From positions 1 through 49,154 of the forward strand of contig JBQTJV010000002.1 in assembly GCA_052386775.1 (NCBI GenBank): a stretch of 49,154 nt of DNA, written 5' to 3'. The notes beneath the pieces were generated by a model, which saw nothing but the letters and a program-made list of their open reading frames with translations, did no database searches and was not told the DNA's origin. Made by a program: the position numbers and the translations under genes. Positions 13,412 to 48,999 of this stretch are shown here, piece by piece (position 1 is the stretch's first letter; each line of letters begins with the position of its first letter). Source of the stretch: Betaproteobacteria bacterium (GTDB lineage: Bacteria; Pseudomonadota; Gammaproteobacteria; Burkholderiales; SG8-41).

Positions 13412-14683
13412 TCAGGCGAACTCGCGGGGGTCGGTGATGCAGCCCGAGACAGCGGAGGCGGCTACGGTTGCCGGGCTGCCGAGATAGAGTTTCGCATCCT
13501 TCGCGCCGAAGCGGCCCGCGCCGTTTGCGACCGCGGAAGAAATCGAGACCTCGCCCGAGTGGATGAGGCCGGTGCGGCCGCTCGCGCACACGCCGCATCC
13601 CGCCGGCATGATCATGGCCCCGGCGTCGTGAAACACATCGAAAAGCCCATCCTGTCGCATGCGCCGCGTGGAGTCTTCCGAGCCGGGCGTAACGATGAGC
13701 CGCACGCCCGGCGCAAGATGTCGCCCGCGCAGAATATTTCCCGCGGCGATGAGGTCGTCGTACATGCCCGAGCCGCAGGAGCCGATGAAAGCGTGATCGA
13801 TGCGCGTGCCGGCGACTTCCGCCAGATCGACCGCGTTGTGCGGCGCTCCAGGCAGCGCCACTTGCGGCTCGAGACCGCTCACGTCCATGTCGATTGCAGC
13901 GTCATAGCGCGCATCGAGATCGGGATACACCGGCGCAAACGGGCGTTGCGCACGCTGACGCGCCGCTGCCACGATCTGCTGTGACGGCGGAAAAAAAACG
14001 CCTATCGCGCGCATCTCCGTCGGCGTGCTGCACAGCGAAACCCGTGCGGCAAGACCGAACTGGTCCAGATCTCCGGCGAATTCGAGCACGCGGTAATCGA
14101 TGTCGACGCCGAACTCGCCGCCCGGCTTCAGTCGTTTTCCGATCTGAAAACCGAGATCTCTCGCGTAGACGCCCGCCTTGAGCCTGCCCCTGATCGTCAG
14201 CTTGACCGAGTGCGGCACCAGCGTCCACACCGTTCCGGTGGCAAGCACGCGCGAAATCTCGGTGCCCACGCGTATCGCCAGCGCGCCGATGCCGCCGGCA
14301 TTGGTGCAGTGGCGGTCGTTGTCGAAATAAAAAGTGCCCGGCAGAACCAATCCGCGTTCCATCGGAAAGATGTGCCCGTGGCCGCCCTGGCCGGCGTCAT
14401 AGAAATGCGTGACGCCCCACGCGCGCGCGGCTTTTCGGTTGAACGCACCGCGGGCCGCGGCGCGCTCGTTGGTGTAGACCACATCGTGGTCGGTCACCAT
14501 CAGCACGCGATCGGGGTCGAACAGCCGGTCGATGCCGATCGCATCCATTTCCTGCTTCGCGCCCATCACCACGCCATCGTGAATAATGACGAGATCGGCC
14601 AACGGGTTAACGATGTCCCCGGCGCGCGTGTCGTGCAGGCCGGCGGCGCGCGCGAGAATCTTTTCAGCGGCAGTCATTCCCAT
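13412..14683 (-). CDS. Second aconitase-family (LeuC-like) large subunit, divergent
   Basis: MGMTAAEKILAR, IHD, DHD, IGSCGSG, CGVC and YLGSPATVAASA. Confidence 0.88.
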   Translation of the reverse strand: MGMTAAEKILARAAGLHDTRAGDIVNPLADLVIIHDGVVMGAKQEMDAIGIDRLFDPDRVLMVTDHDVVYTNERAAARGAFNRKAARAWGVTHFYDAGQGGHGHIFPMERGLVLPGTFYFDNDRHCTNAGGIGALAIRVGTEISRVLATGTVWTLVPHSVKLTIRGRLKAGVYARDLGFQIGKRLKPGGEFGVDIDYRVLEFAGDLDQFGLAARVSLCSTPTEMRAIGVFFPPSQQIVAAARQRAQRPFAPVYPDLDARYDAAIDMDVSGLEPQVALPGAPHNAVDLAEVAGTRIDHAFIGSCGSGMYDDLIAAGNILRGRHLAPGVRLIVTPGSEDSTRRMRQDGLFDVFHDAGAMIMPAGCGVCASGRTGLIHSGEVSISSAVANGAGRFGAKDAKLYLGSPATVAASAVSGCITDPREFA

Positions 14684-15814: not shown

Positions 15815-16789
15815 ATGAAGAAGCATTTCCTGATCGCTCTGCTTGCGGGCATCGCAGGCACCCTTGCCGTTGCGACGCCTTCCGAGGCACAGACCTATCC
15901 GACGCGCGCGGTGCGCATCATCGTGCCGTTTCCGCCGGGCGAGGCGGCCGATACCATCGCGCGGCTGGTGGCGCCTGTGCTTTCGCAGCGCATGGGGCAG
16001 CAGTTCGTCGTGGACAATCGTCCCGGAGCGGCGGGCCAGATCGGGTTGCAGCTCCTCAAGCAGGCGCCGCCGGACGGCTATACCATCGGCATGGGACAGG
16101 GCGGCAACATGTCGGTGCAGCCCCACACCTACGCGAAACTGCCCTACGATGCGCTGAACGATTTCGCAGGTCTTTCGCTTGCCGCGACCAACTACCTCGC
16201 GGTCGTCGCGAATCCCGGCGCACCGTTCAAAACGCCGAAGGATATGATCGACTGGGCCAAGAAGAACCCCGGGAAACTGTCGGTGGGCACGAACGGCGAG
16301 GGCGGTTACCCGCACCTGACGATGGAGTTCCTGGCGCGTTCGGCGGGGTTCACTTTCCTGCACGTGCCGTACAAGGGTGCAGGCCAGATCACCACGGAGG
16401 CGATCGCCGGTCAGATTCAGACGGGGGTGGGCTCCTACACCTCGATGTCGCCGCATGTCGCAGCGGGCCGGCTCAAGCTGATCGCGGTGACCAACGACGT
16501 GAAGGTTCCGAACAAGCCAGACCTGCCGATCTTCGCCGAAGTCGTGCCTGGATACGATATGCGCGGCTGGTTTGGCTGGGTAGCGCCCGCCAAGATCCCG
16601 CGCGACATCGTCAAGCGTCTCAACGCCGAAATAAACCGCGCCATGCAGCAGCCCGAAGTCAACACCAAGCTGGTCGATCTGGGTCTGCTCGTGCAGAACG
16701 AGTCCGCCGAGTACTTCGACAAATTCCTCAAGGCGGAATACGAGAAGTACGGCAAGCTGGTGCGCGATATCGGCCTCAAGCCGAAGTAA
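15815..16789 (+). CDS. Bug/TctC substrate-binding protein
   Basis: Signal peptide; YPTRAVRIIVPFPPG, DNRPGA, PDGYT and HVPYKG. Confidence 0.95.
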   Translation: MKKHFLIALLAGIAGTLAVATPSEAQTYPTRAVRIIVPFPPGEAADTIARLVAPVLSQRMGQQFVVDNRPGAAGQIGLQLLKQAPPDGYTIGMGQGGNMSVQPHTYAKLPYDALNDFAGLSLAATNYLAVVANPGAPFKTPKDMIDWAKKNPGKLSVGTNGEGGYPHLTMEFLARSAGFTFLHVPYKGAGQITTEAIAGQIQTGVGSYTSMSPHVAAGRLKLIAVTNDVKVPNKPDLPIFAEVVPGYDMRGWFGWVAPAKIPRDIVKRLNAEINRAMQQPEVNTKLVDLGLLVQNESAEYFDKFLKAEYEKYGKLVRDIGLKPK

Positions 16790-16836
16790 AGGAAAGCGGG
16801 CGCGGCCGTGCCCGGCCGCCACCCGCCCTGACGCAG

Positions 16837-17442
16837 TTACTCGCGCATCGCGCGCGCTTTCTTGGCGGCCGGCCGATCCCAGCAGCGCTGGAACCATGCA
16901 CTGAAGCGCGGCCATTTGGCGAGATCGAGCGTGTGCGCCCGATAGAGCGCGGACGCGACATTGAGATCGCCGACCGAAAACGCGGGTCCTGCCAGCCAAT
17001 CGGTCTTTTTCAGTGCCGCTTCGAGGACATCGAACGCCGGCACCACTTCCTTCCAGGCTGCGTCCGCGACGTCCGCTTTGCGTTCTGCGGCGGGCAGGTC
17101 TTTGGTATGCCGGCAGTAGTTGACGAGCTGGCGGTCCAGCCGATCGGTCTCCCACAGGCTCCACTGCCACACCAGCGCCTCGTGTTTCGGGTCGCCGGGA
17201 TAAAGCGGGCTCCTGTGTTTCTTGGCGAGGTACATGTTGATCGCCATCGACTCGGACAGGATGAAGCCATCGTCGTCGATCGTCGGGACGCGCGCATTGG
17301 GGTTGAGCGCGAGATACTCGGAAGTCCGCGTTTCCGGCGAGCGCGGCAGCCAGTCTTTCTGTTCGTAGGGAATACCCAGTTCACCGACCATCCAGAGCAC
17401 GCGCAGGGTGCGCGATTTCGCCGAGCCGTAGATGCGTAGCAT
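16837..17442 (-). CDS. Glutathione S-transferase family protein
   Basis: SRTLRVLW, LNPNARVPT, LSESMAI and FSVGDL; RBS GGAGG before ATG 17442. Confidence 0.92.
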   Translation of the reverse strand: MLRIYGSAKSRTLRVLWMVGELGIPYEQKDWLPRSPETRTSEYLALNPNARVPTIDDDGFILSESMAINMYLAKKHRSPLYPGDPKHEALVWQWSLWETDRLDRQLVNYCRHTKDLPAAERKADVADAAWKEVVPAFDVLEAALKKTDWLAGPAFSVGDLNVASALYRAHTLDLAKWPRFSAWFQRCWDRPAAKKARAMRE

Positions 17443-30952: not shown

Positions 30953-32173
30953 CTATAGCGCCGGCCGCGAAGTGTCCGCTGGCGGCGACACTTCGAACGC
31001 GTTCGCCAGGCAGCCCATCATGACGCAGTAGCCCAGGAATACCGAGATCTGCACCAGTTCGGCGATACCGAATTCGGTGGCCGCCGTCTGATAGGTGGGC
31101 TCGGGCACGTGGTGATTGCCACGGAGAAGCGGTATGCAGAACTCGAGCAGCACGCGTTCCTTGCCGCTGGCGATCTGAATTGCCTCATCCCGGTCGATGG
31201 CCGCGATCAACCGCGGGTCGACATGAGCTGCGTGCGCGGCCGCTGACCAGACCGTCCGCAGGTATCCGGAATCGAGTTCGCGAGCCACTATCGAACCGAC
31301 AATGGCACGCGTTGCGTCGGTGAGCGCGCCTTCGTAAAGCAGAAAGGCGCCGATATGGGCGGCACGTTCGGCGGCGTCCGGGGTATGGAGCAGGACCTGA
31401 AACACCGGCGAGATCCAGCCGCGCGTGCGCACGATCCGATCGAGAAAATGCTGATGCTCGGGTGGCACCTCCTGGTGGCCCGAAAGCAGCGGCACGCGCG
31501 GTGTCGCTGCTTCTGCCCACTCGGGCAGTATTCTCGCGCCGCCGTGACCGGGCGCACCCACCTCGAGCGGGGCAAACGGCTTGCGCAAGCCTTTCTGCTC
31601 GGCCGTCATCTCCATCTCGAACGCGTTGAGCGGCAGCGCAATCATCGCGAAATAGCCGAGCGTCATCACCAGTTCCACGACACCCTGCATGCCGTAGCGC
31701 TCGAGCGCCGCGCGGAACACACCGTCGCTCAGGCGATGATTGCCCGACGTGAGTTGAGCGCACAGCTCCGCAATCAGCGCTTCTTCCGCCGTGAGGCGCG
31801 GCGGCGTACGCCCCTCGCGGATTGCATCCACGGTCTGCTGCGGCACGCCGGCTTCGAGCGCCCAGTTGACCCACGCCGCCCACTCGTAGGGCGCATCGAG
31901 CGCGCGCGAGCCGATCAGCGCGACGAATGCGCGAACCCGCAGCGGCAGGATGGATTCGTCCGCCTGCCCCCGCGCGTGAAAGTAATGCCCGAGATGCGCG
32001 ATGCGCGCCGCGAGATCGGGGCTGCTGTTCATGGTGACGATGAAGGGCCCGCTTACCGGCCGGCGCCGTATCGCGCTTACCGCATCGTAGAAGCGGCGCT
32101 CGTCTGCGGGCAGCGCCTCGCGGGGAATTGCAGCCAGTCTGCTCACGTCGTCGGCTTTCAATAGAAGGGGCAC
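30953..32173 (-). CDS. Tandem two-domain carboxymuconolactone decarboxylase (CMD/AhpD-like) protein
   Basis: Two repeats of GPF/SPVF..SPD/TPD..HLG/HIG, APYEW, and G..GVVEL...GY / GIAELV...GY. Confidence 0.8.
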   Translation of the reverse strand: MPLLLKADDVSRLAAIPREALPADERRFYDAVSAIRRRPVSGPFIVTMNSSPDLAARIAHLGHYFHARGQADESILPLRVRAFVALIGSRALDAPYEWAAWVNWALEAGVPQQTVDAIREGRTPPRLTAEEALIAELCAQLTSGNHRLSDGVFRAALERYGMQGVVELVMTLGYFAMIALPLNAFEMEMTAEQKGLRKPFAPLEVGAPGHGGARILPEWAEAATPRVPLLSGHQEVPPEHQHFLDRIVRTRGWISPVFQVLLHTPDAAERAAHIGAFLLYEGALTDATRAIVGSIVARELDSGYLRTVWSAAAHAAHVDPRLIAAIDRDEAIQIASGKERVLLEFCIPLLRGNHHVPEPTYQTAATEFGIAELVQISVFLGYCVMMGCLANAFEVSPPADTSRPAL

Positions 32174-32249
32174 CGATTATAGCTGCGGAGCCGTGATAGG
32201 ATTCCCGCTCTTCTACCCGAACCCACACTCACGACAGAGGAATATCGCC

Positions 32250-34126: not shown

Positions 34127-34672
34127 TCAACTCACCAGTCCGAGTTCGCGGCGTTTGCGTGTGCGCCAGTCGCTGAAGGGTTCCGTCGTGGGATCGTTCG
34201 CGATGCGTTTTCGGGTCGATTCCGCGATTTCATCGTCCGACAGCGAAAAGTCGATCGCCACGCGGTGCGGCTGCGCGACGTACCACGGCGTGTCGCAGAA
34301 GAACTCAAGCCGGTTGCCTTCGGGATCGAGAAAATACACCGACCACGCATTGCCGTGATCCACGGGGTCGACGCCTTCCACCTTGTGGGCCATCGCGAGG
34401 TCGTACATCGCGCGCACTTCCTTGAGCGAGGCGACGCGGTAGGTGATCTGGTTGACGGTGGACCTGGTGCCTTTTTCGCGCCCGGTCACGAGCACGATCT
34501 GATGATGATCCTTGGGATCCTTGCTGAGGAAGGTGAGGCGAACGCCGCTCCTCAGTTCCCCCGCGTCCATCACCTTGTAGCCCAACAGGCCGGTGTAGAA
34601 ATCGCGCATCTTGTCCATGTCGCTGACGAACAGGCCGACATGGCTCAGTTCCCACTTGGGCAATTCCGGCAT
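34127..34672 (-). CDS. VOC family protein (extradiol dioxygenase-like single domain)
   Basis: LSHVGLFV, FYTGLLG, DHHQIVL and DHGNAWSVYFLDPEGNRLE. Confidence 0.88.
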   Translation of the reverse strand: MPELPKWELSHVGLFVSDMDKMRDFYTGLLGYKVMDAGELRSGVRLTFLSKDPKDHHQIVLVTGREKGTRSTVNQITYRVASLKEVRAMYDLAMAHKVEGVDPVDHGNAWSVYFLDPEGNRLEFFCDTPWYVAQPHRVAIDFSLSDDEIAESTRKRIANDPTTEPFSDWRTRKRRELGLVS

Positions 34673-38677: not shown

Positions 38678-39616
38678 TCAATGGGTGCTCTTCCCGTCGG
38701 TGCGCTTCTTCGTCGCGATTTCCTTTGCCATCGCCCGCAGGATTTCGATGAACCGCCTGGCTACGGGAGAGAGGTAGCCGTCTTTTCGGTACACCGCGGA
38801 GACCGAACGTATCCATTTTGCGTCCTTGACGGGCAGGATTCTGAGCCCGAGCTTGTCCGTATGGGGCTCCACGCTTCGCCTCGGAGCGATGCCGAGCATA
38901 TCGAGCGTGGCAACCATCTCCCGGTTCAGCGCACCCGCGTCCGATACAACGGCGAATTTTGGTGGAGGCAGGCCCCGCTCTTCGAATGTGCGCTGCAGCG
39001 AATTCCACGCCAGAATTCCACTCGCCGCCGTCGCAGCCCACCTTTCGTTCGCAAGATCAGCCAGCCTAATGATCTTGCACTTGGACAACGGGTGGCGTAC
39101 GGACGCGTACACCACGAATTCGTCGTCCCACAACGCCTCCCGAACGAGACCTTCGCGCGGCGCGTCCGACATCTGGCTCACGACGACATCGAACTCGCCC
39201 TTGCGCAGCTCCTTGAGCAGCGCATCGGTGGATGCCGCGATCGAGATGTCGAGCGTGACCTGGGGCGTGTCCTTCAGCAACGTCCTGGATGCGTTCGGGA
39301 GTATTTCATTGGCGATGACCGGACTCGTGCCGATGCGCAAATGCCCGGCTTGCCCCTTGGCAAGGTCGGAGATCTCGCGGGCAAGATCCGCGCGAGCGAG
39401 TTTTAACCTGCGCACGTGCGACAGCAGCGCGCTGCCCACGTCGGTCAGCTCGACGCCTTTCGGCGTCCGCTTCACGAGCTTGGCCCCCGCGGACGCTTCC
39501 AGCCGCCGCAGGCTCACGCTGAGCGCGGGTTGTCCCAATCCCAGCGCCTCGGCCGCCCGTCCGAGATGCCCGTGTTCCGCGATTACCGCGAAATACTCAA
39601 TGTCGCGAAGGTCCAT
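38678..39616 (-). CDS. LysR-family transcriptional regulator
   Basis: MDLRDIEYF..IAEHGHLGRAAEALGLGQPALS HTH, followed by a LysR substrate-binding domain. Confidence 0.95.
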   Translation of the reverse strand: MDLRDIEYFAVIAEHGHLGRAAEALGLGQPALSVSLRRLEASAGAKLVKRTPKGVELTDVGSALLSHVRRLKLARADLAREISDLAKGQAGHLRIGTSPVIANEILPNASRTLLKDTPQVTLDISIAASTDALLKELRKGEFDVVVSQMSDAPREGLVREALWDDEFVVYASVRHPLSKCKIIRLADLANERWAATAASGILAWNSLQRTFEERGLPPPKFAVVSDAGALNREMVATLDMLGIAPRRSVEPHTDKLGLRILPVKDAKWIRSVSAVYRKDGYLSPVARRFIEILRAMAKEIATKKRTDGKSTH

Positions 39617-39624
39617 AGATATTA

Positions 39625-39668
39625 TTCATTTTAATGAAGTCTCAAATCACAGACAATTGCATTAATGC
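39625..39668. promoter_or_regulatory. AT-rich divergent promoter region with LysR-type T-N11-A dyad
   Basis: TTCATT-TT-AATGAA (39625-39638) and palindrome GCATTAATGC (39659-39668) between the LysR and Bug genes. Confidence 0.5.
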
Positions 39669-39733
39669 GATGACGGCGTCAATATCGGCCAGAATCTTTG
39701 CCGGTATGGGCAAAGAGACCAACGGAGGGCGCC

Positions 39734-40705
39734 ATGAGTGCTTTGCCGAAAATCGGGATGATGAGTTTGCTCGCAGTCTGTGTCGCCGGGGTAACCAGTC
39801 CGTCGGCGGCGCAGGACTATCCAGCCAAGCCCGTCCGCATCGTAACCGGCCAGCCCGTTACGATAATGGACATCGTGAGCCGCCAGCTCGCGCAACGGCT
39901 TACCGAGCATTGGGGCCGTCAAGTCATCGTGGAAAACCGTGGCGGCGTGGGAAATTCCATGGCGCATGTCAGTCAAGCCACTGCCGATGGTTACACGCTG
40001 CTCGTCGCTGACAACGCGTCGCTTGCGATCCGCCAGCATATCTACCGCTCGCTTCGCTACGATCCGGAGCGGGATTTCGCGCCGATCGCCTTGCTCGCGT
40101 GCTCACCGAGTTTCCTGATTGTGCATCCCTCGGTTCCAGCGACCAATCTGGGCGAGTTCATCGCCTACGCGAAACGCCACCCGGGAGGCGTCGATTTTGC
40201 GAATGCCGGACCGTGGACCAACAATCATTTGACGGTGGAGCTTTTCAAGCGGCTGACCGGTATCAACGTCGTTCACGTGAGTTACAAGGGCGGCGGCGCG
40301 GCGACGGCGGCAATCGTCAGCGGCGAAACGAAAGCGGGATTCAGCACGCCGTTTATGTCCCTGCCGCACGTGAAAGCCGGCAGGGTCAAGGCCTATGCGG
40401 TGACCAACAGCAAACGATTCGCGGGCGCTCCTGAGATACTCACCAGGGCGGAGTCCGGGGCAGGTGCCTTCGTAACCACGTACTGGTTCGGGTTGCTTGC
40501 GCCCGCGCGTACCCCGCCCGCGTTGGTCAAGCGGCTCAATCTCGAAGTGGTCGACCTGCTGCAATCATCGGGGATGAAAGCCGCGCTGCTGGAGCAGGGC
40601 GCGGAACCCGGCGCGGGGACCCCAGAGGAATTCTCTGCTTTTATCCGGAGCGAGACCGAAAGGTTCAAGAAGGTCATCGAAGCCGCCGGTATCCGCCCGG
40701 AGTAA
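39734..40705 (+). CDS. Bug/TctC substrate-binding protein (probable LysR target)
   Basis: YPAKPVRIV, ENRGG, DGYTL, YKGGG and KKVIEAAGI; RBS GGAGG. Confidence 0.92.
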   Translation: MSALPKIGMMSLLAVCVAGVTSPSAAQDYPAKPVRIVTGQPVTIMDIVSRQLAQRLTEHWGRQVIVENRGGVGNSMAHVSQATADGYTLLVADNASLAIRQHIYRSLRYDPERDFAPIALLACSPSFLIVHPSVPATNLGEFIAYAKRHPGGVDFANAGPWTNNHLTVELFKRLTGINVVHVSYKGGGAATAAIVSGETKAGFSTPFMSLPHVKAGRVKAYAVTNSKRFAGAPEILTRAESGAGAFVTTYWFGLLAPARTPPALVKRLNLEVVDLLQSSGMKAALLEQGAEPGAGTPEEFSAFIRSETERFKKVIEAAGIRPE

Positions 40706-40709
40706 CGGT

Positions 40710-40865
40710 CTATTCTCCGATACCGTATCGGGCGGTCTCTATAAACGCCGGCAGCGGCGGCTCCGTGCCTGCAGGCAGCGGCGTGCGATCCACGTTGAGC
40801 GTCATAGAGACCATCACGTAGATAGCCGTTGACGGCGATGAGGTCATGACGCCGTGCGCGCCGCA
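40710..40865 (-). pseudogene. Frameshifted 3' remnant of a CMD-family gene (paralogue of 41791-42387)
   Basis: Reads GAHGVM/DLIAVNGY/YVMVSMTLNVDRTPLPAGTEPPLPAF with two 1-nt indels; 27-nt exact match 40774-40800 = 41828-41854. Confidence 0.85.
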
Positions 40866-40888
40866 CCGACGTTGCACAGGTGTAAGCT

Positions 40889-41023
40889 ATGGCTCACGAT
40901 GCCAGCGTGGTCGAAATCCGTGAGACGGCGCTATCCCTCGAAGGCAATCCAAATTTTGCGACGATCATGAAAGTCTGCAAAGCACGTGGGTTGAAGCTGC
41001 ACACCGAACCAGTCGACGCATAG
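40889..41023 (+). pseudogene. Truncated HI1420-type (Xre-HTH) addiction-module antidote fragment
   Basis: 44 aa MAHDASVVEIRETALSLEGNPNFATIMKVCKARGLKLHTEPVDA; ALS..GNP.F.TI.KV..A.GLKL is the C-terminal signature of that family. Confidence 0.7.
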
Positions 41024-41080
41024 CTGCAAAGAACTTGCACGGAGAGCGCGACGCCGGTGTCGGCTTTGGCGCCCAGTCCC

Positions 41081-41120
41081 TTGACCCCCGTCTGTCCGAT
41101 ATGTACACTTGTTCTGTACT
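41081..41120 (+). promoter_or_regulatory. Sigma70 promoter of the TA operon with overlapping TGTACA/TGTACT operator-like sites
   Basis: TTGACC(41081-86)-17 nt-TACACT(41104-09); TGTACA at 41102-07 and TGTACT at 41115-20. Confidence 0.65.
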
Positions 41121-41135
41121 CATGGGAAAACGACA

Positions 41136-41375
41136 ATGGAAACGGTTAAAGTCACCGAGCTCAGGCAGAACCTGCCCGAATACCTCGCGAAGGTGAAGCG
41201 AGGCCGGCGAGTGCGGGTGACTTCGCGGGGCCAGGTGGTCGCTGAGCTTGCCCCCCCGTCCGCCACCAGCGAGGAGGTGGACGCGGCGCGCGCCCGGTTG
41301 CGCGGAAGCGTAGTCAAGTACGAGCGTCCGACCGAGCCGGTGATCGATCCCGGCGAATGGGACGTTAACAAATGA
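41136..41375 (+). CDS. Phd/YefM-family antitoxin
   Basis: METVKVTELRQNLPEYLAKVKRGRRVRVTSRGQVVAEL; ATGA overlap with the PIN toxin. Confidence 0.9.
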   Translation: METVKVTELRQNLPEYLAKVKRGRRVRVTSRGQVVAELAPPSATSEEVDAARARLRGSVVKYERPTEPVIDPGEWDVNK

Positions 41376-41767
41376 TCGTCCTGGACACCCACGTCTTGGT
41401 TTGGTGGGTGACGGGCGCTCCGGATTTGTCTACGCGTGCGAAACGCGCGATTCGGGCAACGGTGCGGCGGGAAGCGGCCGTCGCCTCTGCCATCAGCATA
41501 TTCGAGATCGCGACGGCGGTGCGCCGGGAGCGTCTGAAGTTTCGCGTATCACTGGACCAATGGCTGAGAGATTTGCGTTCTCTGACCGAACTCCAACTGG
41601 AGCCGGTGAGCGCCGACATTGCCCACCTTGCCGGCACGCTGGGGACCTCGCTGCCGGGTGATCCCGCAGATCGGATCATCGTCGCGACGGCGATCGGTCT
41701 GAAGGCCAGGCTGGTGACAGCGGATATCCGCCTCCAGAAATCGCAGCGTATTGAAACAGTCTGGTAG
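41372..41767 (+). CDS. vapC: PIN-domain (VapC-family) toxin
   Basis: MIVLDTHVLVW, SAISIFEI, DPADRIIVATA and LVTAD acidic active-site residues. Confidence 0.92.
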   Translation: MIVLDTHVLVWWVTGAPDLSTRAKRAIRATVRREAAVASAISIFEIATAVRRERLKFRVSLDQWLRDLRSLTELQLEPVSADIAHLAGTLGTSLPGDPADRIIVATAIGLKARLVTADIRLQKSQRIETVW

Positions 41768-41790
41768 CGAGCGGGCGGAGGCAGCGTACC

Positions 41791-42387
41791 TTACCTGCTC
41801 AACGCCGGCAGCGGCTTCGCACCTTCCGGCAGCGGCGTGCGATCCACGTTGAGCACCATCGACACCAGCCCGTAATAGCCGTTGACGGCGATCAGATCCA
41901 TGACGCCGCGCTCGCCAAAACGGTCCAGCGCCCGCTGGTAGGTCTCGTCGCTCACTCCGTGCGTCTCGTGCAACTCGTGCGAGAAGTCGTAAACGATCGC
42001 CTCCTCTTCGGACATCTTCGCCGGGCGGCGGCCGTTTGCGATGTCCTCGCCGATTGCGGGATCGAGCCCGGCCTCCAGCGCGAGGCGGTGGTGGGCCTGC
42101 CACTCGTAATGCGAGCTCCAGTGGCGCGCCGTGATGATGATTGCCAGTTCGTTCAGCTTCGATGGAATCGAGCTGCGAAAACGAATCTCCGCGCCGAGGC
42201 TCTGGATGATGTTGCCGATGTCGGGGCTGCGCAGAAACACGTTGAACGGCCCGACGAGCGGTCCCGGTTTCGCCGCGGCAGAGTTCTTCACCGAGCTGCG
42301 CGGGCCGGACTTGATCGCGTCGTAGAGCGCGCGCTGGTCGGCGTTGAGGTTTTCGAGGGGAATCTGCTTGAACCGCTGTGTCTGCAT
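41791..42387 (-). CDS. Carboxymuconolactone decarboxylase (CMD) family protein
   Basis: GPFNVFLRSP, ELAIIITAR, YEWQAH and FGERGVMDLIAVNGYY. Confidence 0.9.
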   Translation of the reverse strand: MQTQRFKQIPLENLNADQRALYDAIKSGPRSSVKNSAAAKPGPLVGPFNVFLRSPDIGNIIQSLGAEIRFRSSIPSKLNELAIIITARHWSSHYEWQAHHRLALEAGLDPAIGEDIANGRRPAKMSEEEAIVYDFSHELHETHGVSDETYQRALDRFGERGVMDLIAVNGYYGLVSMVLNVDRTPLPEGAKPLPALSR

Positions 42388-42531
42388 GGTGGGCTTTCCT
42401 GATCAGTGAATGCTTGTCGAAATGCTATGTGTTCGACGGCGAAGCTGTATTATCGCCGAAACACGGCCCTTTGAGACGTCTCGTTCTGATGGTGTTGCGG
42501 CGCTTACCGCTGAGCCTGTTATCGTAGCGGC

Positions 42532-43362
42532 ATGCTCGGTGTGCCGCTCAATGAACTGCTCTTTTTCCTCGCCGCCATTGCGGCGGGCGGCGTGGTGGCC
42601 GGGTTGCTCGCCGGCATGTTCGGCGTCGGCGGCGGTGTCGTCGTAGTGCCGGTGCTCTACGAGGTGTTCCGCCTGCTCGGCGTGCCGGAAGCCGTGCGCA
42701 TGCAGCTTTGTATCGGCACGTCGCTCGCGGTCATGGTGCCAACCAATATCCGTTCGTATCTCACGCATCGTTCGACCGGCGCGGTACTCACGAATGTGGT
42801 GAAGCAGTGGACGCCCGCCGCGATCGCCGGTATCGCCATCGGTGCGGCGGTTGCCGCAGTCGCGCCGTCGACGGTTTTCAAAATCGCCTTTATCGTCATC
42901 GCGGCGCTCATTGCCGCCAAGCTTCTGTTCAGCCGGCAATCGTGGCGGCTGGGAGACGACCTGCCGAAGCATCCGCTGGCACGCCTCTACGGCCTCGCGG
43001 TCGGGCTGATGGCCTCGCTTACCGGCGTCAGCGGCGGATCGCTTTGTACAATGGTGCTGACGCTCTACGGCAAGGGGATCCATCAGGCGGTCGCGACCTC
43101 CGCCGGCATCCTGGTGCCGATCACGCTCGCCGGCACGCTGGGCTATGCCGCCGCCGGTCTGCCGCACCAGGCGCAACTGCCGCCGCTGTCGATCGGCTTC
43201 GTGTCGCTGATCGGGTTTGCGCTGATGGCGCCGATATCGAGCATGACTGCTTCTTATGGCGCAAGAATGGCCCACGCGCTTTCGCGACGCGTGCTCGAAG
43301 TCGCTTTCGGGCTGTTCCTGCTCGCTGCGTCGCTGCGCTTTCTCGCCAGCCTGGTGTGGTGA
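42532..43362 (+). CDS. TauE/SafE-family (TSUP) sulfite exporter
   Basis: AGMFGVGGGVVVVP, IGTSLA, GVSGG and HQAVATSA; multiple TM helices. Confidence 0.92.
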   Translation: MLGVPLNELLFFLAAIAAGGVVAGLLAGMFGVGGGVVVVPVLYEVFRLLGVPEAVRMQLCIGTSLAVMVPTNIRSYLTHRSTGAVLTNVVKQWTPAAIAGIAIGAAVAAVAPSTVFKIAFIVIAALIAAKLLFSRQSWRLGDDLPKHPLARLYGLAVGLMASLTGVSGGSLCTMVLTLYGKGIHQAVATSAGILVPITLAGTLGYAAAGLPHQAQLPPLSIGFVSLIGFALMAPISSMTASYGARMAHALSRRVLEVAFGLFLLAASLRFLASLVW

Positions 43363-43377
43363 GATGGAAAAAACCGC

Positions 43378-44580
43378 TTGATCACGCGCCCGGAAAATCA
43401 GCTCTCCATTGCCCTGGGGGCGATGTTCCTGCAGCAGACGTTCGTCGCGCTCGGCAGGGCGCTGCCGGCGGTGATCGCGCCGGCGATCCTCACGGATCTC
43501 AGGATCGACGCGGTCTGGGTCGGCGTTTATTTCGGCCTGACCGCCGCCGCTTCGCTCGTCGCGCAGCTCGGCTGCGGCAGCTTCATCGTGCGCCACGGCG
43601 CCTTGCGCATGAGCCAGATCTCGCTCTTCATGCTTGCGGTCGGCACCGCACTGGCTGCGGTGGGAACGCCGGTGGCGCTCATCCTGTCCGCGATCATCTG
43701 CGGCGCGGGCAGTGCCGTATCCACACCGGCGAGCTCGCATCTGTTGGGGCGCGTCTCATCGCCACGCTACCTGCCGCTGGTGTTCTCGATCAAGCAGACC
43801 GCGGTGCCGGCAGGTCTGCTCCTGGCCGGTCTGCTCGGTCCGCCATTGACGGAATGGAAAGACTGGCGCTTCACGATGTTGCTCAGCGCGGTGGCGTGCG
43901 CTGTCTTCGCCCTGATGCTCCAGCCCCTGCGCCGCTCTTTCGACGACGACCGGGTGCCGACGCGCACTTTCCGGTTATCCGATTTCAAGTCGACCTTGAC
44001 GTCGGTGGTCGGAACGGCGGACCTGCGAGCCTTGTCCTTCGCCTGCCTGGCCTTCAACGGCGTGCAGGCGACGTTCACGGCGTATTTTGTCGTGTACCTC
44101 ACGACGATCGGCTACACGCCGGTCGCAGCGGGCTTTCTCTTTTCGGTGGCGGTGGCAGTCGCCGTGCCGGGCCGCATCGTCTGGGGCTGGCTCGGCAGCA
44201 GCTATGTCACCCCGCGCATGGTGATGGCGGGACTCGCCTTCGGCATGGCGGGCAGCGCAGCGCTTCTCGCACTGTCGAACGCGGGCTGGCCGACGCTCCT
44301 GGTCGGCCTGATTGCCTGCGTGCTCAGCGCCACGGCGTTGTCGTGGCACGGCGTGCTCTTGGCTGAAACCGCGCGCGCGGCGCCGGAAGGCATGCGCGGC
44401 GGCATCACCGGCGGCGTGCTGTCCTTCGGCCAGTTCGGTGCGTTGTCGCTGCCGCTCATGTATTCCGCGCTTCTCGACCTCACCGGCAGCTACGGCGTCG
44501 GCTTTATCGTGTGCGGCGTCCCCGCGCTGCTGGTCGGCGTGCAACTGCTCCGCCAGCGCGCTGCATCGCATGACACTTGA
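43378..44580 (+). CDS. MFS transporter
   Basis: About 12 hydrophobic segments; FSIKQTAVPAG, GRIVWGWL and E..P..MRG motifs; TTG start is uncertain. Confidence 0.88.
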   Translation: MITRPENQLSIALGAMFLQQTFVALGRALPAVIAPAILTDLRIDAVWVGVYFGLTAAASLVAQLGCGSFIVRHGALRMSQISLFMLAVGTALAAVGTPVALILSAIICGAGSAVSTPASSHLLGRVSSPRYLPLVFSIKQTAVPAGLLLAGLLGPPLTEWKDWRFTMLLSAVACAVFALMLQPLRRSFDDDRVPTRTFRLSDFKSTLTSVVGTADLRALSFACLAFNGVQATFTAYFVVYLTTIGYTPVAAGFLFSVAVAVAVPGRIVWGWLGSSYVTPRMVMAGLAFGMAGSAALLALSNAGWPTLLVGLIACVLSATALSWHGVLLAETARAAPEGMRGGITGGVLSFGQFGALSLPLMYSALLDLTGSYGVGFIVCGVPALLVGVQLLRQRAASHDT

Positions 44581-44847
44581 CGGGGCCTGAAAAGCGGGGA
44601 TACTGCCAAAAAAGTCCCGTCGCTTGCGGGTTACGAGGAGCCCCAAGCTTGCGCCCAGCCGCGTTTCGACTGATGTCGACCGCCGCCGTCACCACGGTCG
44701 CGGCGGGCCGCTGCATTTTCTCCGCGCCGCGGTATTTCATTCCTGAACTCCGCGGCTTCCGACCGGAAGCCTGCAATCCCATCGAACCTCGCCCGATCCC
44801 CGGATATAAATCAGCGCCGCAAACGGCGCATCACCAGGAGGATGACA

Positions 44848-45816
44848 ATGAAAACTCGCTATCGTGGCTGGCTGCTCTGCTTGATCTGCGGTTTGGCGTG
44901 GCTTGCGCCGGCGGAGGCGCAATATCCCACCCGCTCCATCCGCCTCGTCCTGCCGTTCCCGCCCGGCGGCGGCACCGATACGATGGCACGGGCGATGGGC
45001 ACCCGCCTCGGCGAAGCGCTGGGGCAGCAGGTCCTGATCGATAACCGCGGCGGAGGCGGCGCCAACATCGGCGCGGAAATCGCGGCGAAATCACCACCCG
45101 ACGGCTATACGTTGTTCATGGTGACCGTGACGCACACGATCAACGCGACCCTGTATCGCAGGCTCGGCTACACGCTCGTGAAGGATTTCGTTCCGATATC
45201 GCACCTCGGCAGCACGGCCTATGTGGTCGTGGTGCATCCTTCGTTACCGGTGACATCGGTCAAGGAGCTGGTCGCGCTGGCGAAGGCACGTCCGGGCGAG
45301 ATCTCTCACTCGTCATCCGGTACCGGCAGCGGCCCGCATCTAGCCGGCGAGCTGTTCAAGAGCACGACGGGGATCAAGATGCTGCACATACCTTTCAGGG
45401 GCGGCGGACCCTCGGTCATCGGGCTGGTGTCCGGCGAAGCTGCGGTCGGGTTTACAACGACACCTTCATGCATCGGTCAGATCAAGGCAGGCCGGCTCCG
45501 CGCGCTCGCGGTCAGCACCGCACAACGCTCGCCGTTCCTGCCGGACCTCCCGACGGTTGCGGAAGCCGGCGTTCCAGGCTACGACACCAGCGCCTGGTAC
45601 GCCCTGCTGGCGCCGACGGGCACGCCCAAGGAAGCCATCGAGCGACTGAACACGGAAACGGCCAAGGTCCTGACGCTGCCGGATGTGAAATCGCGGCTGG
45701 ACGCCACCGGCATGGTGGTCAACTACAGCGGTCCGGAGGAACTGGATCGCAAGATACACGATGAAATCGCGAAGTGGGCGAAAGTGGTAAAGGCGCTCGG
45801 CCTGACTGTCGATTGA
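44848..45816 (+). CDS. Bug/TctC substrate-binding protein
   Basis: YPTRSIRLVLPFPPGGGTD, DNRGGG, PDGYTL and KWAKVVK; RBS AGGAGG. Confidence 0.95.
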   Translation: MKTRYRGWLLCLICGLAWLAPAEAQYPTRSIRLVLPFPPGGGTDTMARAMGTRLGEALGQQVLIDNRGGGGANIGAEIAAKSPPDGYTLFMVTVTHTINATLYRRLGYTLVKDFVPISHLGSTAYVVVVHPSLPVTSVKELVALAKARPGEISHSSSGTGSGPHLAGELFKSTTGIKMLHIPFRGGGPSVIGLVSGEAAVGFTTTPSCIGQIKAGRLRALAVSTAQRSPFLPDLPTVAEAGVPGYDTSAWYALLAPTGTPKEAIERLNTETAKVLTLPDVKSRLDATGMVVNYSGPEELDRKIHDEIAKWAKVVKALGLTVD

Positions 45817-45916
45817 AATAAAGCGGACGCGGAATGGCGTCTGGCTGTACCGGACGCCGGCGGCGCTCGATCGCTGCAGGCTTCCGGCCAGTGCGCGCCG
45901 TATGCATCCGGCCACG

Positions 45917-46124
45917 AACCGGGCGGTCGCGACCTCCGCGGGATCTTCGTGCCGATCATGCTTCCCGGCACCGTCGTGTACATCCTCGCCGGTTTGCCGT
46001 ACCGGGAGCAATTTCCGGCGCTTCGCGTCGCTGATCGGTTTTGAGCTGATTGCGCCGGTGTCGAGCGTTGCCGCGTCCTACGGCACGAGAATGGGCCCGC
46101 GCACTGCCACGGCGGGCGCTGTAA
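45917..46124 (+). pseudogene. Frameshifted 3' remnant of a TauE/SafE gene (paralogue of 42532-43362)
   Basis: NRAVATSAG/IFVPIMLPGTVVYILAGLPYREQFPAL/FASLIGFELIAPVSSVAASYGTRM/ALPRRAL* aligns to HQAVATSAGILVPITLAGTLGYAAAGLPHQAQLPPL..FVSLIGFALMAPISSMTASYGARMAHALSRRVLE (43081-43299). Confidence 0.85.
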
Positions 46125-46217
46125 ACCGCGTTCGGTCCCTACCTCGGCGGATGCGCAGCTGCCATCGCTGGTCGAATAAAACTGCGGGAAAGGCAAGGAT
46201 GCTTGTAAACTCCCGCG

Positions 46218-47609
46218 ATGGCTGCTTGCGCGCGATGGTTCGGGAAGGTGCTGCTCCTCGCGGTGGGGCTCTGCGCGGCGGCCGGCGCCGTGGCGCAGGA
46301 GCAGCCGCGCCTCGTTTATGTGGCAGCGATCGAAGGCATCATCGATCTCGGCCTGGCGCCGTACGTGCAGCGAGTTCTTGACGAAGCGGCCGCCACCGGC
46401 GCGTCCGCCGTGGTGCTGGAGGTCAACACGTTCGGCGGACGGGTGGACGCCGCGGTGCAAATCCGCGACGCACTGCTCGGTGCGAAGGTGCCGACCATCG
46501 CCTATGTGAACCGGCGCGCCATCTCGGCAGGAGCGCTGATCTCGCTCGCCGCGCAGCATCTGGTGATGGCGGAGGGCGCCACCAGCGGCGCGGCGACGCC
46601 GGTGCAGGTCGCAGGGGCGGATGGCGGCGCGCAGCCGGTCTCGGAGAAGACCGTGTCCTACGTCAGGAAGGAGTTCCGCGCTACCGCGGAGAGCCGCAAG
46701 CGCCCGCCGCTCATCGCCGAGGCGATGGTCGATCCCGACATCGCGATTCGCGGTGTGATCGAGAAAGGCAAGCTCCTTACGCTCACCACCGACGAGGCGC
46801 TGAAGCACAAGGTGGCGGAGTTCCGTGCCGAGAGCATCGAGGCGGCGCTGGAGCGCGTGGGAATCAAGGGCGCGGAGCTGCGGCGGGTATCGCTCAACTG
46901 GGCGGAGCAGGTGGTGCGTTTCCTGACGCACCCTATATTGAGCTCGCTGCTCGTCACCATCGGCATGCTCGGCATCATCATCGAGCTGCGCAGCCCCGGT
47001 TTCGGCGTCGCCGGGGCCATCGGCATGGGAAGTCTCGCTGCGTTCTTCTGGGGCCATTGGCTGGTGCAGCTCGCCGGCTGGGGTGAACTGCTGCTCGCGC
47101 TGAGCGGGGTTGCGCTGCTGCTTCTCGAATTTCTGGTCATTCCCGGGTTCGGCTTTGCAGGTATCCTCGGCATCGTCGCACTGCTCGCCGCCCTCGTGAT
47201 GAGCGTTCTAGGGTCCGGAGCGACGCCGGAATTTTTCATGCTTGCGGCAGGCCGGATGCTTTTTTCGCTGCTCGTCGCCTTGATCGCGAGCTTCTTTCTG
47301 CTGCGCTTCATGCGGCGCACGCCGTTCGGGCGGCTGCTGATTCTCGATACGGAGCTCGGTGCGGGACATGAATACGGCTCGGCGCCCGAGGCTGACATGC
47401 GCTGGCTGGGCAAACGCGGGTACACGACCTCACCGCTCCGTCCGGCGGGGATCGCCGACATCGGAGGAACACGCGTGGACGTGGTGTCCGAGGGCGAGTT
47501 GATCGTGCCGGACACGCCGGTCGAGGTCATTCGCGTGGACGGCAACCGCATCGTCGTGCGGCAAGTAACGAACATCAACCAGGAGGGGCACACACGTGAC
47601 GGGACTTGA
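46218..47609 (+). CDS. nfeD: Long-form NfeD membrane-bound serine protease (ClpP-like domain + TM + OB fold)
   Basis: [18 protein letters not shown] (Ser), SEK (Lys), TM region, and C-terminal [15 protein letters not shown] domain. Confidence 0.92.
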
Positions 47610-48576
47610 AACTGGATTTACCGGGATATTGGGCATTCTGATCGTTGTCGGCATCGCGATTTTTCTGTTGCTGTACTTGGTGCCTATTCCACTGTGGATT
47701 GCGGCCTGGGCCTCGGGCGCATACGTGGGCTTGTTCACTTTGGTAGGGATGCGGTTGCGCCGCATTCCGCCGAATACAGTGATCACCGCGCGCATCAGTG
47801 CGGTCAAGGCGGGGCTCGATCTCTCGGTCAACGACCTCGAGGCGCACTACCTCGCGGGCGGTAACGTGGTGCGTGTAGTCAACGCGATGATTTCCGCCGA
47901 CAAGGCGAATATCCCTCTGCCGTTCAAACGCGCCGCAGCCATCGACCTCGCCGGGCGCAACGTGCTCGAAGCGGTGCAGATGTCGGTGCTGCCCAAGGTG
48001 ATCGAGACGCCGAAGATCGCCGCGGTCGCCAAGGATGGCATCCAGTTGATCGTCGTCTCGCGCGTTACGGTGCGCACCAATATCGACCGCTTGGTGGGCG
48101 GCGCAGGGGAGGAGACCATCATCGCGCGCGTGGGCGAAGGTATGGTGAGTACCATCGGCTCGGCCGTCAACCACAAGAGCGTGCTCGAGAACCCGGACCA
48201 TATCTCGAAGCACATCCTCTCCAAGGGCCTGGATGCGGGCACCGCCTACGAGATCCTCTCGATCGACATCGCCGACGTGGACGTCGGCGAGAACATCGGT
48301 GCAAAGCTGCAGATCGACCAGGCCAATGCCGACAAGCAGATCGCCCAGGCGAAGGCCGAGGAGCGCCGCGCGATGGCGGTGGCGCTGGAGCAGGAGATGC
48401 GTGCGCGCGTTGTGGAATCCGAAGCCGAGGTGCCGCGCGCCATGGCCGAAGCCTTCCGCCAGGGCAATCTTGGCATCATGGACTACTACCGCATGAAGAA
48501 CCTGCAGGCCGATACCGACATGCGCGGCGTCATTGCTGGTACCGGGAACGACGCCGCCGGTTCGCCGAAGATGTAG
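47596..48576 (+). CDS. floA: Flotillin-like protein FloA (YqfA/UPF0365)
   Basis: [53 protein letters not shown] and GIMDYY; RBS AGGAGG. Confidence 0.93.
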
Positions 48577-48582
48577 ACCGCC

Positions 48583-48999
48583 GTGAGCAAGAACGAACTT
48601 TTCCTCTATGGTCTTTTCTTCGTCGGCTTCCTGCTGTTCAACTATTTCATGCAGCAGGTAGCGAAACGCGCGCGGGAACGGCAGGAGCAGGCGCAGCAGC
48701 CGGAAGCGGCACCGGTACCGGAAGATGAGGCGCTGGAACCGTTATGGGGGCGCGTTCCACAGGACGCTTTTCCGCAGCCGGCTGCGCGTGTCGAGCCGGC
48801 CCGCCGCGTAGAGACCGTTGCCGCGCAGCCCGCGCCTTCACCACGATACCTCGGGCCCAAAGCACTGTTCGGCTCCCGGCAGGCGCTGCGCCATGCCGTC
48901 ATCGTCATGACGGTACTCGGGCCATGCCGGGCGCTTCAGCCGCACGACCAGCATGAAGGCGGGCCCGCCCCGGGCGGCGCCGCCCAGAACCTGTCCTGA
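48583..48999 (+). CDS. YqfB-like hypothetical protein (N-terminal TM, Pro-rich linker)
   Basis: Third gene of the nfeD-floA operon; C-terminal LRHAVIVMTVLGPCRA resembles the LRQA..EILG.P motif typical of this position. Confidence 0.65.
   Translation: MSKNELFLYGLFFVGFLLFNYFMQQVAKRARERQEQAQQPEAAPVPEDEALEPLWGRVPQDAFPQPAARVEPARRVETVAAQPAPSPRYLGPKALFGSRQALRHAVIVMTVLGPCRALQPHDQHEGGPAPGGAAQNLS

Follow-up and report, generated by a model that had tools for sequence, protein, structure and literature searches.

Pseudogene stubs that arise from local rearrangement and the displacement of 3′ ends by recombination are already well known. C-terminal displacement that leaves "orphan" 3′ ends has been described at Rhs, contact-dependent inhibition (CDI) and type VI secretion system (T6SS) effector-immunity loci, and homology-facilitated illegitimate recombination (HFIR) is proposed for it (Kirchberger 2017, PMC5361080). 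In E. coli K-12, prophage e14 lies in icd, where the insert supplies a replacement 3′ end and the old 3′ end is the pseudogene icdC (PMC13626634). Here, we describe a locus in a 49,154-nt stretch of DNA (in the following called the window) from a betaproteobacterial genome, in which a divergently transcribed pair of intact genes, one CMD/AhpD-like (called CMD below) and one encoding a TauE protein, is accompanied by decayed 3′ remnants of the same two genes (called CMD′ and TauE′). We regard it as an even call that the conserved CMD/AhpD-like gene lies in a hotspot where segments were duplicated, inserted and deleted step by step, and that these stubs are the scars left behind. Kirchberger 2017 cites Jackson 2009 and de Vries & Wackernagel 2002 on C-terminal displacement and HFIR, and Hill 1989 is cited by PMC13626634 for e14 and icd.

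An earlier note, made from the letters of the window alone, had proposed that decayed remnants lie downstream of the intact copies in the same orientation, and gene order, tblastn and repeat searches agree on this; its coordinates for the remnants were right, if slightly conservative. Using intact CMD as a tblastn query, we detected CMD′ at 40868–40743 with 54.8% identity over 42 amino acids (residues 156–196; E-value 4.6e-8 in the window and 4.1e-6 in the whole 4.3-Mb genome). At the DNA level, 100 of 115 positions (87%) are identical between CMD′ and the intact CMD of the window (gene nt 472–587 of 597), with 83–87% identity across alignments. CMD′ extends over gene nt ~462–587 plus the stop region, the first ~465 nt are lost, and its lesions are a deletion and an insertion of 1 nt each and one additional codon. 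The intact TauE query matched TauE′ in two frames at 45940–46093 (70.8% identity over 24 amino acids and 53.3% over 30; E-value 5e-10 in the window and 3.8e-8 in the genome). Robust DNA homology at 45917–46144 corresponds to gene nt 550–788 of 831, and a weak, gappy extension reaches to 45823 and ~46170, so that the probable cover is gene nt ~466 to ~805. This stub carries at least five frameshifting indels, including −1, −11 and +1, and is 75% identical to intact TauE over 321 nt, or 72% in the ranking against relatives. A repeat search of the window independently returned both pairs of intact gene and stub (families D1–D3, D9 and D14). Each stub is homologous along its whole length to the intact 3′ end, and the best near-exact patches between copies (20 of 21 nt in D14, 22 of 24 nt in D9) lie within motifs conserved in all orthologues.

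The intact TauE is a clear family member (PF01925, 137.6 bits against a gathering cut-off of 32.6 bits). Since the intact CMD reaches only 16.4 bits with PF02627, under the cut-off of 23 bits, has no match in an NCBIfam search and only a weak match to PDB 2pfx (E-value 0.0049), "CMD" is used merely as a working label. Of 40 relatives, 20 have an orthologue of it, with 64–90% amino acid identity. The sequence GTATTATCGCC at 42447–42457, ~60 bp upstream of CMD, is identical in genome G004 (L033) and has one mismatch in genome G001 (L049). The upstream region aligns with both genomes over the ~75 bp next to CMD, this element included; past ~42463 the gene content differs from genome to genome, and some 45–70 bp past GTATTATCGCC the neighbour is TauE, BugB or NfeD. 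The element may be a regulatory site at the edge of the variable zone.

Compared with Rhs, CDI and T6SS loci, here too a 3′ fragment lies downstream of an intact gene in the same orientation without an integrase, and conserved anchors are set in variable surroundings. The genes concerned are, however, a small enzyme and a transporter rather than polymorphic toxins, and an immunity gene is lacking. Old and new 3′ ends share homology over their full length (72–87% nucleotide identity) instead of being different tips, the stubs flank both sides of a divergent pair, and no mosaic signal of a resident 5′ part joined to an incoming 3′ part is seen. The resemblance to e14/icd is that the insert would supply a replacement 3′ end and leave the old one beyond it as a pseudogene. 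Integrase and phage genes were, however, not found, nor was a shared exact core at the stub borders, and the inserts measure only 1–3 kb. A Pfam scan of the 47 ORFs in the window (13 at E ≤ 0.01, 34 at E ≤ 1e-5) revealed no integrase or transposase family, as the earlier note had held. Neither tRNA genes nor Rfam matches were found in the respective scans.

The window corresponds to contig C2 in a 4.33-Mb metagenome-assembled genome (MAG) of 417 contigs that is 91% complete. In the following, G000 is the genome holding the window, G001 to G008 are genomes of relatives, and L- and C-numbers denote loci and contigs. The genome, which is highly plastic, belongs to a Bug-rich soil betaproteobacterium (Burkholderiales-like); among named relatives, MAGs of Betaproteobacteria and Burkholderiales are nearest. 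Twelve ORFs in the window were assigned to the TctC family by Pfam, and two Bug queries yielded 227 and 240 tblastn matches across the genome. Judged by the nucleotide identity of rpoB, G001 is the nearest genome (86–88%), followed by G005 and G006 (86%) and by G008, G003 and G004 (84–85%).

Measured against the consensus of orthologues, 54 of 234 sites differ in TauE′ (23.1%) and 30 of 140 in CMD′ (21.4%; p = 0.81 for the difference). The changes at codon positions 1, 2 and 3 number 17, 13 and 24 in TauE′ and 7, 11 and 12 in CMD′, both compatible with an even spread, and the pattern in TauE′ differs from that in functional orthologues (p = 0.005). Because the changes are spread over the codon positions, the divergence of the stubs at the protein level is mostly due to neutral decay. 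Divergence at four-fold sites between G000 and G001 amounts to 0.36–0.54 (Jukes-Cantor), or ~0.18–0.27 per lineage; as the divergence of the stubs is comparable to the latter value, they have decayed for about as long as the two genomes have been split. The remnants are thus no recent duplications, as had been proposed, and CMD′ accordingly shares none of the four changes private to intact CMD. The claim that the functional copies superseded the older ones was likewise borne out.

Phylogenetic trees put both stubs, like the intact genes, into the crown clade of close orthologues, and their exact place within it is not settled by fragments that are short (267 alignment columns for TauE′, 151 for CMD′) and sit on long branches. 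A placement of CMD′ as sister of intact CMD was not rejected by the approximately unbiased (AU) test (p-AU 0.23). Among 159 genomes of the family, the closest sequence to TauE′ is 77% identical, versus 72% for its own intact copy, and 77% is also the best value among 80 metagenome loci. For CMD′ the closest family genomes reach 84–85% over 98–118 nt, versus 83–87% for the intact copy. Hence, no donor lineage clearly closer than the intact neighbour was found for either stub in these two collections. Nor did sliding windows and partition trees reveal a mosaic signal in intact CMD or TauE at the stub borders, the ranking of orthologues being the same for 5′ and 3′ parts; a closely related donor would leave no such signal. 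Relatives closer to the remnants and chimeric intact genes were what the earlier note expected, and the lack of both, which it had itself named as speaking against its reading, is largely what we obtained. In 54 metagenome loci (L158–L211; L212–L237 lie outside this tabulation), no orthologue of CMD, BugB or MFS with at least 55% amino acid identity was located near TauE.

Tandem TauE pairs occur in three of the 80 metagenome loci (L158 875–2554, L166 1701–3460 and L165 2–1333). The upstream partner in these pairs belongs to a separate, well-supported older paralogue clade, to which the stubs do not belong.

Looking at the right side of the locus, the gene order in G001 is CMD (minus strand) followed by BugB-TauE-MFS-TauD, and in G006 TauE-MFS is followed by the same TauD. 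BugB of the window together with 274 bp upstream (44568–45817) is collinear with the CMD-BugB spacer and BugB of G001 (85.1% nucleotide identity; L049 5146–3892). Homology of MFS to G001 and G006 stops at 44559, and the BugB upstream region begins after 8 nt at 44568; the last codons and the stop of MFS therefore derive from the joint. This joint fuses the MFS end to sequence that in G001 precedes BugB-TauE-MFS. It contains a sigma-70-like site for BugB (TTGACG, 16-nt spacer, GATACT) that overlaps the MFS stop and is present with the same sequence upstream of BugB in G001. Two differences from G001 can be recognized. A TauE-MFS segment of ~2.1 kb lies inside the CMD-BugB spacer, and behind BugB the TauE′ stub and NfeD-FloA replace the intact TauE-MFS-TauD. 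Because BugB is collinear and directly followed by TauE in G001, TauE′ is the positional counterpart of the G001 TauE, and the new TauE copy did not bring BugB and its upstream region along as cargo. Nucleotide identity to G001 is 85.3% for CMD, 84.3% for TauE, 86.3% for MFS and 85.1% for BugB, compared with 85.0–86.5% for the flanks. An orthologue of TauD in G000 was found at C140:1–420 (93% amino acid identity over the last 140 residues), where the contig begins within the gene and cuts it at residue ~185. The tail of the ancestral cassette has probably moved to another place or is hidden by an assembly gap; no link from the 174-nt tail of the window's contig to C140 was detected.

The NfeD-FloA module at the right end is 84.5% identical at the nucleotide level to G004, where it abuts the CMD upstream region, and the homology begins ~60 bp upstream of NfeD. 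It turned up in 13 of the 159 family genomes, and among eight searched genomes of genus g1 only in G004 besides G000. As an ancestral arrangement, TauE followed by NfeD was considered and rejected, since none of the 11 other NfeD loci (L143–L153) has TauE or CMD in the flanks examined (at most 1.5 kb upstream).

On the left side, the antidote fragment next to CMD′ is a third 3′ stub. Its match is the terminal stretch of ~30 codons in an intact 115-amino-acid PF21716 ORF of G004 (G004:C120; 87.5% nucleotide identity), and its own Pfam match is under the cut-off (PF21716, E-value 0.0035). The truncated sides of CMD′ and of the antidote gene face each other, so one joint ended both. Next follow the genes for a predicted type II toxin-antitoxin (TA) pair, Phd (PF02604, 33.0 bits, cut-off 29.8) and PIN (PF01850, 60.6 bits, cut-off 23.6), which are adjacent and overlap by 4 nt. 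The orthologous pair in G008 (80.9% nucleotide identity) and G006 (83.0%) sits between the glyoxalase gene and Bug36384. The stretch from the glyoxalase gene to CMD differs by genome: the order is glyoxalase, Phd-PIN, Bug36384 and CMD in G008, ATP-grasp, glyoxalase, Phd-PIN and Bug36384 in G006, and other genes, then Bug36384, a zf-PARP ORF and CMD in G001, while in G003 the glyoxalase gene and CMD are adjacent. Over these four genomes, the order of Phd-PIN, Bug36384, ATP-grasp and glyoxalase varies and their orientation is constant. Its different position in G006 and G008 makes Phd-PIN a resident of the neighbourhood that is not tied to CMD. Outside CMD′, LysR-BugA forms a 2-kb lineage-specific module, for which 40 relatives contained no close match. 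Its one close relative, L062, stems from a groundwater Betaproteobacteria MAG (79.6% nucleotide identity over 38705–40706), and there the homology stops at the BugA stop codon with no CMD adjoining.

These comparisons speak against the proposal that one incoming module of ~5 kb had brought the TA system, MFS and Bug genes. By its synteny with G001, BugB was no cargo; Phd-PIN resides elsewhere in G006 and G008; and the block is as diverged from G001 (84–86% nucleotide identity) as are the flanks and rpoB. The modules that are truly lineage-specific, LysR-BugA and NfeD-FloA, lie outside the stubs, and therefore the additions are not between them. Of the interpretation in the earlier note, the age of the stubs, the superseding of the old copies and the missing integrase consequently stand, and the single imported module does not. 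The earlier note also thought of the TA module as possibly stabilising the captured cargo, a conjectural role.

In the stepwise reading, the ancestor of the right side would most likely have been G001-like, with CMD followed by BugB-TauE-MFS-TauD. A second TauE-MFS segment of ~2.1 kb, from the same genome or a close relative, would have been placed between the promoter regions of CMD and BugB, cutting off the native MFS end. The original TauE behind BugB, now redundant, may then have lost its first ~470–550 nt and decayed in place, and MFS-TauD behind it would have been lost there, the patchy NfeD-FloA module now occupying the site. For the left side, the joint at which the antidote 3′ end meets that of an older CMD could be a deletion scar or a duplication joint, placed between the lineage-specific LysR-BugA module and the resident Phd-PIN. 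Ordinary unequal or ectopic exchange of the RecA type, or template switching, followed by deletion might suffice, and no dedicated mobility enzyme would be required. While the stubs with their age, the joints and the collinearity with G001 are observed, we infer the order of these events, and whether the extra copies came from the own lineage or from a close relative. The stepwise reading is supported by the MFS-BugB joint, which is present also in contigs of 92–96% identity from a separate study (run X2, see below). As in segmental or tandem duplication with subsequent decay, the copies are in direct orientation, the MFS end is joined to the BugB upstream region (44559/44568), the changes in the stubs are neutral, and other partial copies lie near paralogues elsewhere in the genome. 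Unlike in such a duplication, the sisterhood of the stubs with their intact neighbours is not resolved, and several further deletions have to be assumed. A genome-wide scan for such partial copies, based on crude GC3-based gene calls and dropping 109 contig-edge segments as well as matches covering at least 60% of the subject, returned 110 internal fragments. Thirteen of them lie within 10 kb of their best paralogue, 12 of these 13 in the same orientation. As crude background, this supports the view that local duplication in direct orientation, followed by decay, is generally at work.

Several observations weigh against the stepwise reading. It needs several events, at least three on the right side alone, and the count of partial fragments is an upper bound, as several of these "fragments" are frameshifted genes or uncalled paralogues. 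A position of TauE′ as sister of intact TauE is weakly rejected (p-AU 0.042), which also argues against a recent duplication, and CMD′ shares only one of the four changes that define the clade of intact CMD, G001 and G005. Native 3′ ends are kept and the outer modules abut at gene ends, which would be simpler if the stubs were resident and the centre had been inserted. The equal divergence of the stubs fits a single event or burst, and so does the presence of two stubs within 5.4 kb, which is unlikely by chance at 13 per 4.3 Mb. G004 has CMD directly beside NfeD-FloA, the adjacency of BugB and TauE is known from G001 alone, and the similar lengths of the lost 5′ parts keep rival explanations alive.

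Errors of assembly or binning in a low-coverage MAG might be suspected given the 417 contigs, but they are a barely credible source of the stubs, as misjoined reads cannot create frameshifted copies at 72–87% identity. Contigs of run X1 match without a single difference over 41716–42065, 44530–44977, 45612–46061 and 46053–46344, bridging the joints PIN-CMD, MFS-BugB, BugB-TauE′ and TauE′-NfeD; X1 has a depth of only ~2–8 and is possibly the window's own source sample, hence not independent. Contigs of run X2 span 41896–45818 at ~92–96% identity, including CMD-TauE and the MFS-BugB joint. X2 cover is absent at 41003–41605 and 45827–46228 at the threshold of at least 90% identity, and these gaps are uninformative on stubs in that organism, because neutral sequence of a relative with 92–96% identity would drop below the threshold. 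Misassembly at the locus, named in the earlier note as a way in which its reading could fall, is therefore very unlikely. A rival explanation in terms of biology is that the stubs are ragged ends of modules from genomes where these had adjoined CMD or TauE, LysR-BugA or the antidote gene having brought CMD′ and NfeD-FloA having brought TauE′. Both modules are indeed patchy and lineage-specific, and TauE of genus g4, in which NfeD occurs in 5 of 33 genomes, is nominally closest to TauE′ (75–77%). As g4 TauE is also among the closest to intact TauE, this closeness probably reflects short branches rather than a link to a donor. With the homology of L062 ending at the BugA stop, no TauE in the examined flanks (at most 1.5 kb upstream) of the 11 other NfeD loci, and homology between G004 and the window starting only ~60 bp upstream of NfeD, such a joint arrival appears highly improbable.

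Exchange of the centre in one step, the first alternative in the earlier note, is also improbable, if less so. Here, an old CMD next to TauE-NfeD-FloA would have lost a centre of ~1.1 kb and at once gained the block of ~5 kb from the antidote stub to BugB. It would account for the equal divergence of the stubs and for near-symmetric losses (~465 nt of CMD vs ~470–550 nt of TauE), requires only two new joints, and agrees with the arrangement in G004. However, TauE′ behind BugB repeats the native BugB-TauE order of G001, which would have to be a coincidence, the block already has two internal joints and is no simple module, and Phd-PIN is unlinked to CMD in G006 and G008. One X2 contig matching the CMD 3′ end continues for 222 nt unlike the window, in the position of PIN, and homologous ends would have yielded a clean replacement rather than stubs. 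More weight is due to two separate homology-anchored captures, one of the CMD 3′ part with Phd-PIN and one of TauE, MFS and BugB, each recombined inside the resident gene, either by single crossover of the Campbell type after the fragment had become circular, or through HFIR. Both events would have duplicated the 3′ end of the gene and driven the older one outward, similar to Rhs and T6SS loci. Each stub lies downstream of an intact copy in the same orientation, retaining its native stop and outer neighbour, and the left side would then require one new joint only, between CMD′ and the antidote stub. A circle cut out of a G001-like BugB-TauE-MFS array would have closed where MFS now meets the BugB upstream region, a sister relation of the stubs to the intact copies is not evident, and the mechanism is documented elsewhere (PMC5361080, PMC3240628). 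We nevertheless consider these captures doubtful. The intact genes lack a mosaic signal, neither stub has a relative that is clearly closer to it, and recombination on the CMD side would have had ~130 nt of homology at most. On the right, the second TauE must still have lost its 5′ part later, and the divergence of the block from G001 looks vertical. Slightly more doubtful still is the version in which the divergent CMD-TauE pair served as a two-sided homology anchor, with integrase-free single-crossover or HFIR captures in one burst displacing both old 3′ ends; such a burst would agree with the two stubs having decayed to the same degree (21% and 23%).

Should the stepwise reading be true, the locus would be a well-resolved case of accessory cassettes, for transport and catabolism, being reshuffled around a gene that is itself conserved, in a genome with hundreds of Bug (TctC) genes, and short pseudogene stubs could persist for about one species split's worth of neutral change. 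Only if homology-anchored capture were true would the locus extend the mechanism of the toxin loci to ordinary metabolic and transport genes, and with capture in one burst, conserved small genes in Bug-rich Burkholderiales would be recurrent landing pads for cassette exchange. For annotation, the stubs should be flagged as pseudogene fragments, and stubs beside intact paralogues alone do not demonstrate an imported module.

Table 1 Features of the CMD-TauE locus and its surroundings, from left to right in window coordinates.
Feature	Position	Strand	Basis or remark
Glyoxalase gene	34127–34672		left bound of the variable stretch reaching CMD
LysR regulator	38678–39616	minus	Pfam
BugA/TctC binding protein	39698–40705	plus	Pfam; ends 4 bp from the CMD′ stub
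CMD′ stub, 3′ ~130 nt of a CMD/AhpD-like gene	40710–40880	minus	tblastn, repeats, DNA alignment
Antidote 3′ stub (PF21716, HI1420-downstream type antitoxin gene)	40889–41030 (fragment ORF 40889–41023)	plus	Pfam and match in G004
Promoter-like site before Phd	41081–41109	plus	promoter scan
Phd antitoxin	41109/41136–41375 (likely start 41136)	plus	Pfam; NCBIfam phd_fam
PIN toxin	41372–41767	plus	Pfam
Intact CMD/AhpD-like gene, conserved anchor of the locus	41791–42387	minus	PF02627 below cut-off
CMD upstream region	42388–42531		last ~27 bp are TauE's own leader
Intact TauE	42532–43362	plus	Pfam
MFS transporter	43378–44580	plus	native homology ends at 44559
BugB native upstream region and BugB	44568–45816 (BugB 44842–45816)	plus	collinear with G001
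Promoter-like site for BugB	44577–44604	plus	promoter scan
TauE′ stub	45823–46170 probable, 45917–46144 robust	plus	tblastn, repeats, DNA alignment
NfeD-FloA-DUF7555-like module	46158–48999	plus	left border ~60 bp upstream of NfeD
NfeD	46218–47609	plus	ORFs, Pfam
FloA	47596–48576	plus	ORFs, Pfam

The CMD of G004 that lies beside NfeD-FloA (L033, G004:C24) is disrupted at 11946–12066 by an insert of ~120 bp with an internal inverted repeat, similar to a miniature inverted-repeat transposable element (MITE), and also has one in-frame TGA. A second 5′ part of CMD is located at the end of G004:C120; contamination of this assembly is 8%.

Further partial copies were noted in G000. A 3′ stub in the window at 13997–14209 (minus strand) encodes 71 amino acids with 67.6% identity to the C-terminus (residues 159–228 of 228) of a C34 ORF located at the contig start, and a Pfam search with this stub gave no match. 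At C34:11220–11300, a 27-amino-acid C-terminal piece (66.7%) lies 0.7 kb downstream of its intact paralogue, and at C228:13501–13821 a Bug piece of 107 amino acids (78.5%) lies 2.5 kb downstream of its own, both in the same orientation as the paralogue and separated from it by one or two genes.

At L049 (G001:C6) 16048–17427, G001 has the counterpart of positions 1–127 at the left end of the window (89.8%) right next to that of 30954–32202. About 30 kb of the window (~128–30953), with many Bug-linked catabolic genes, are thus absent at that site in G001.

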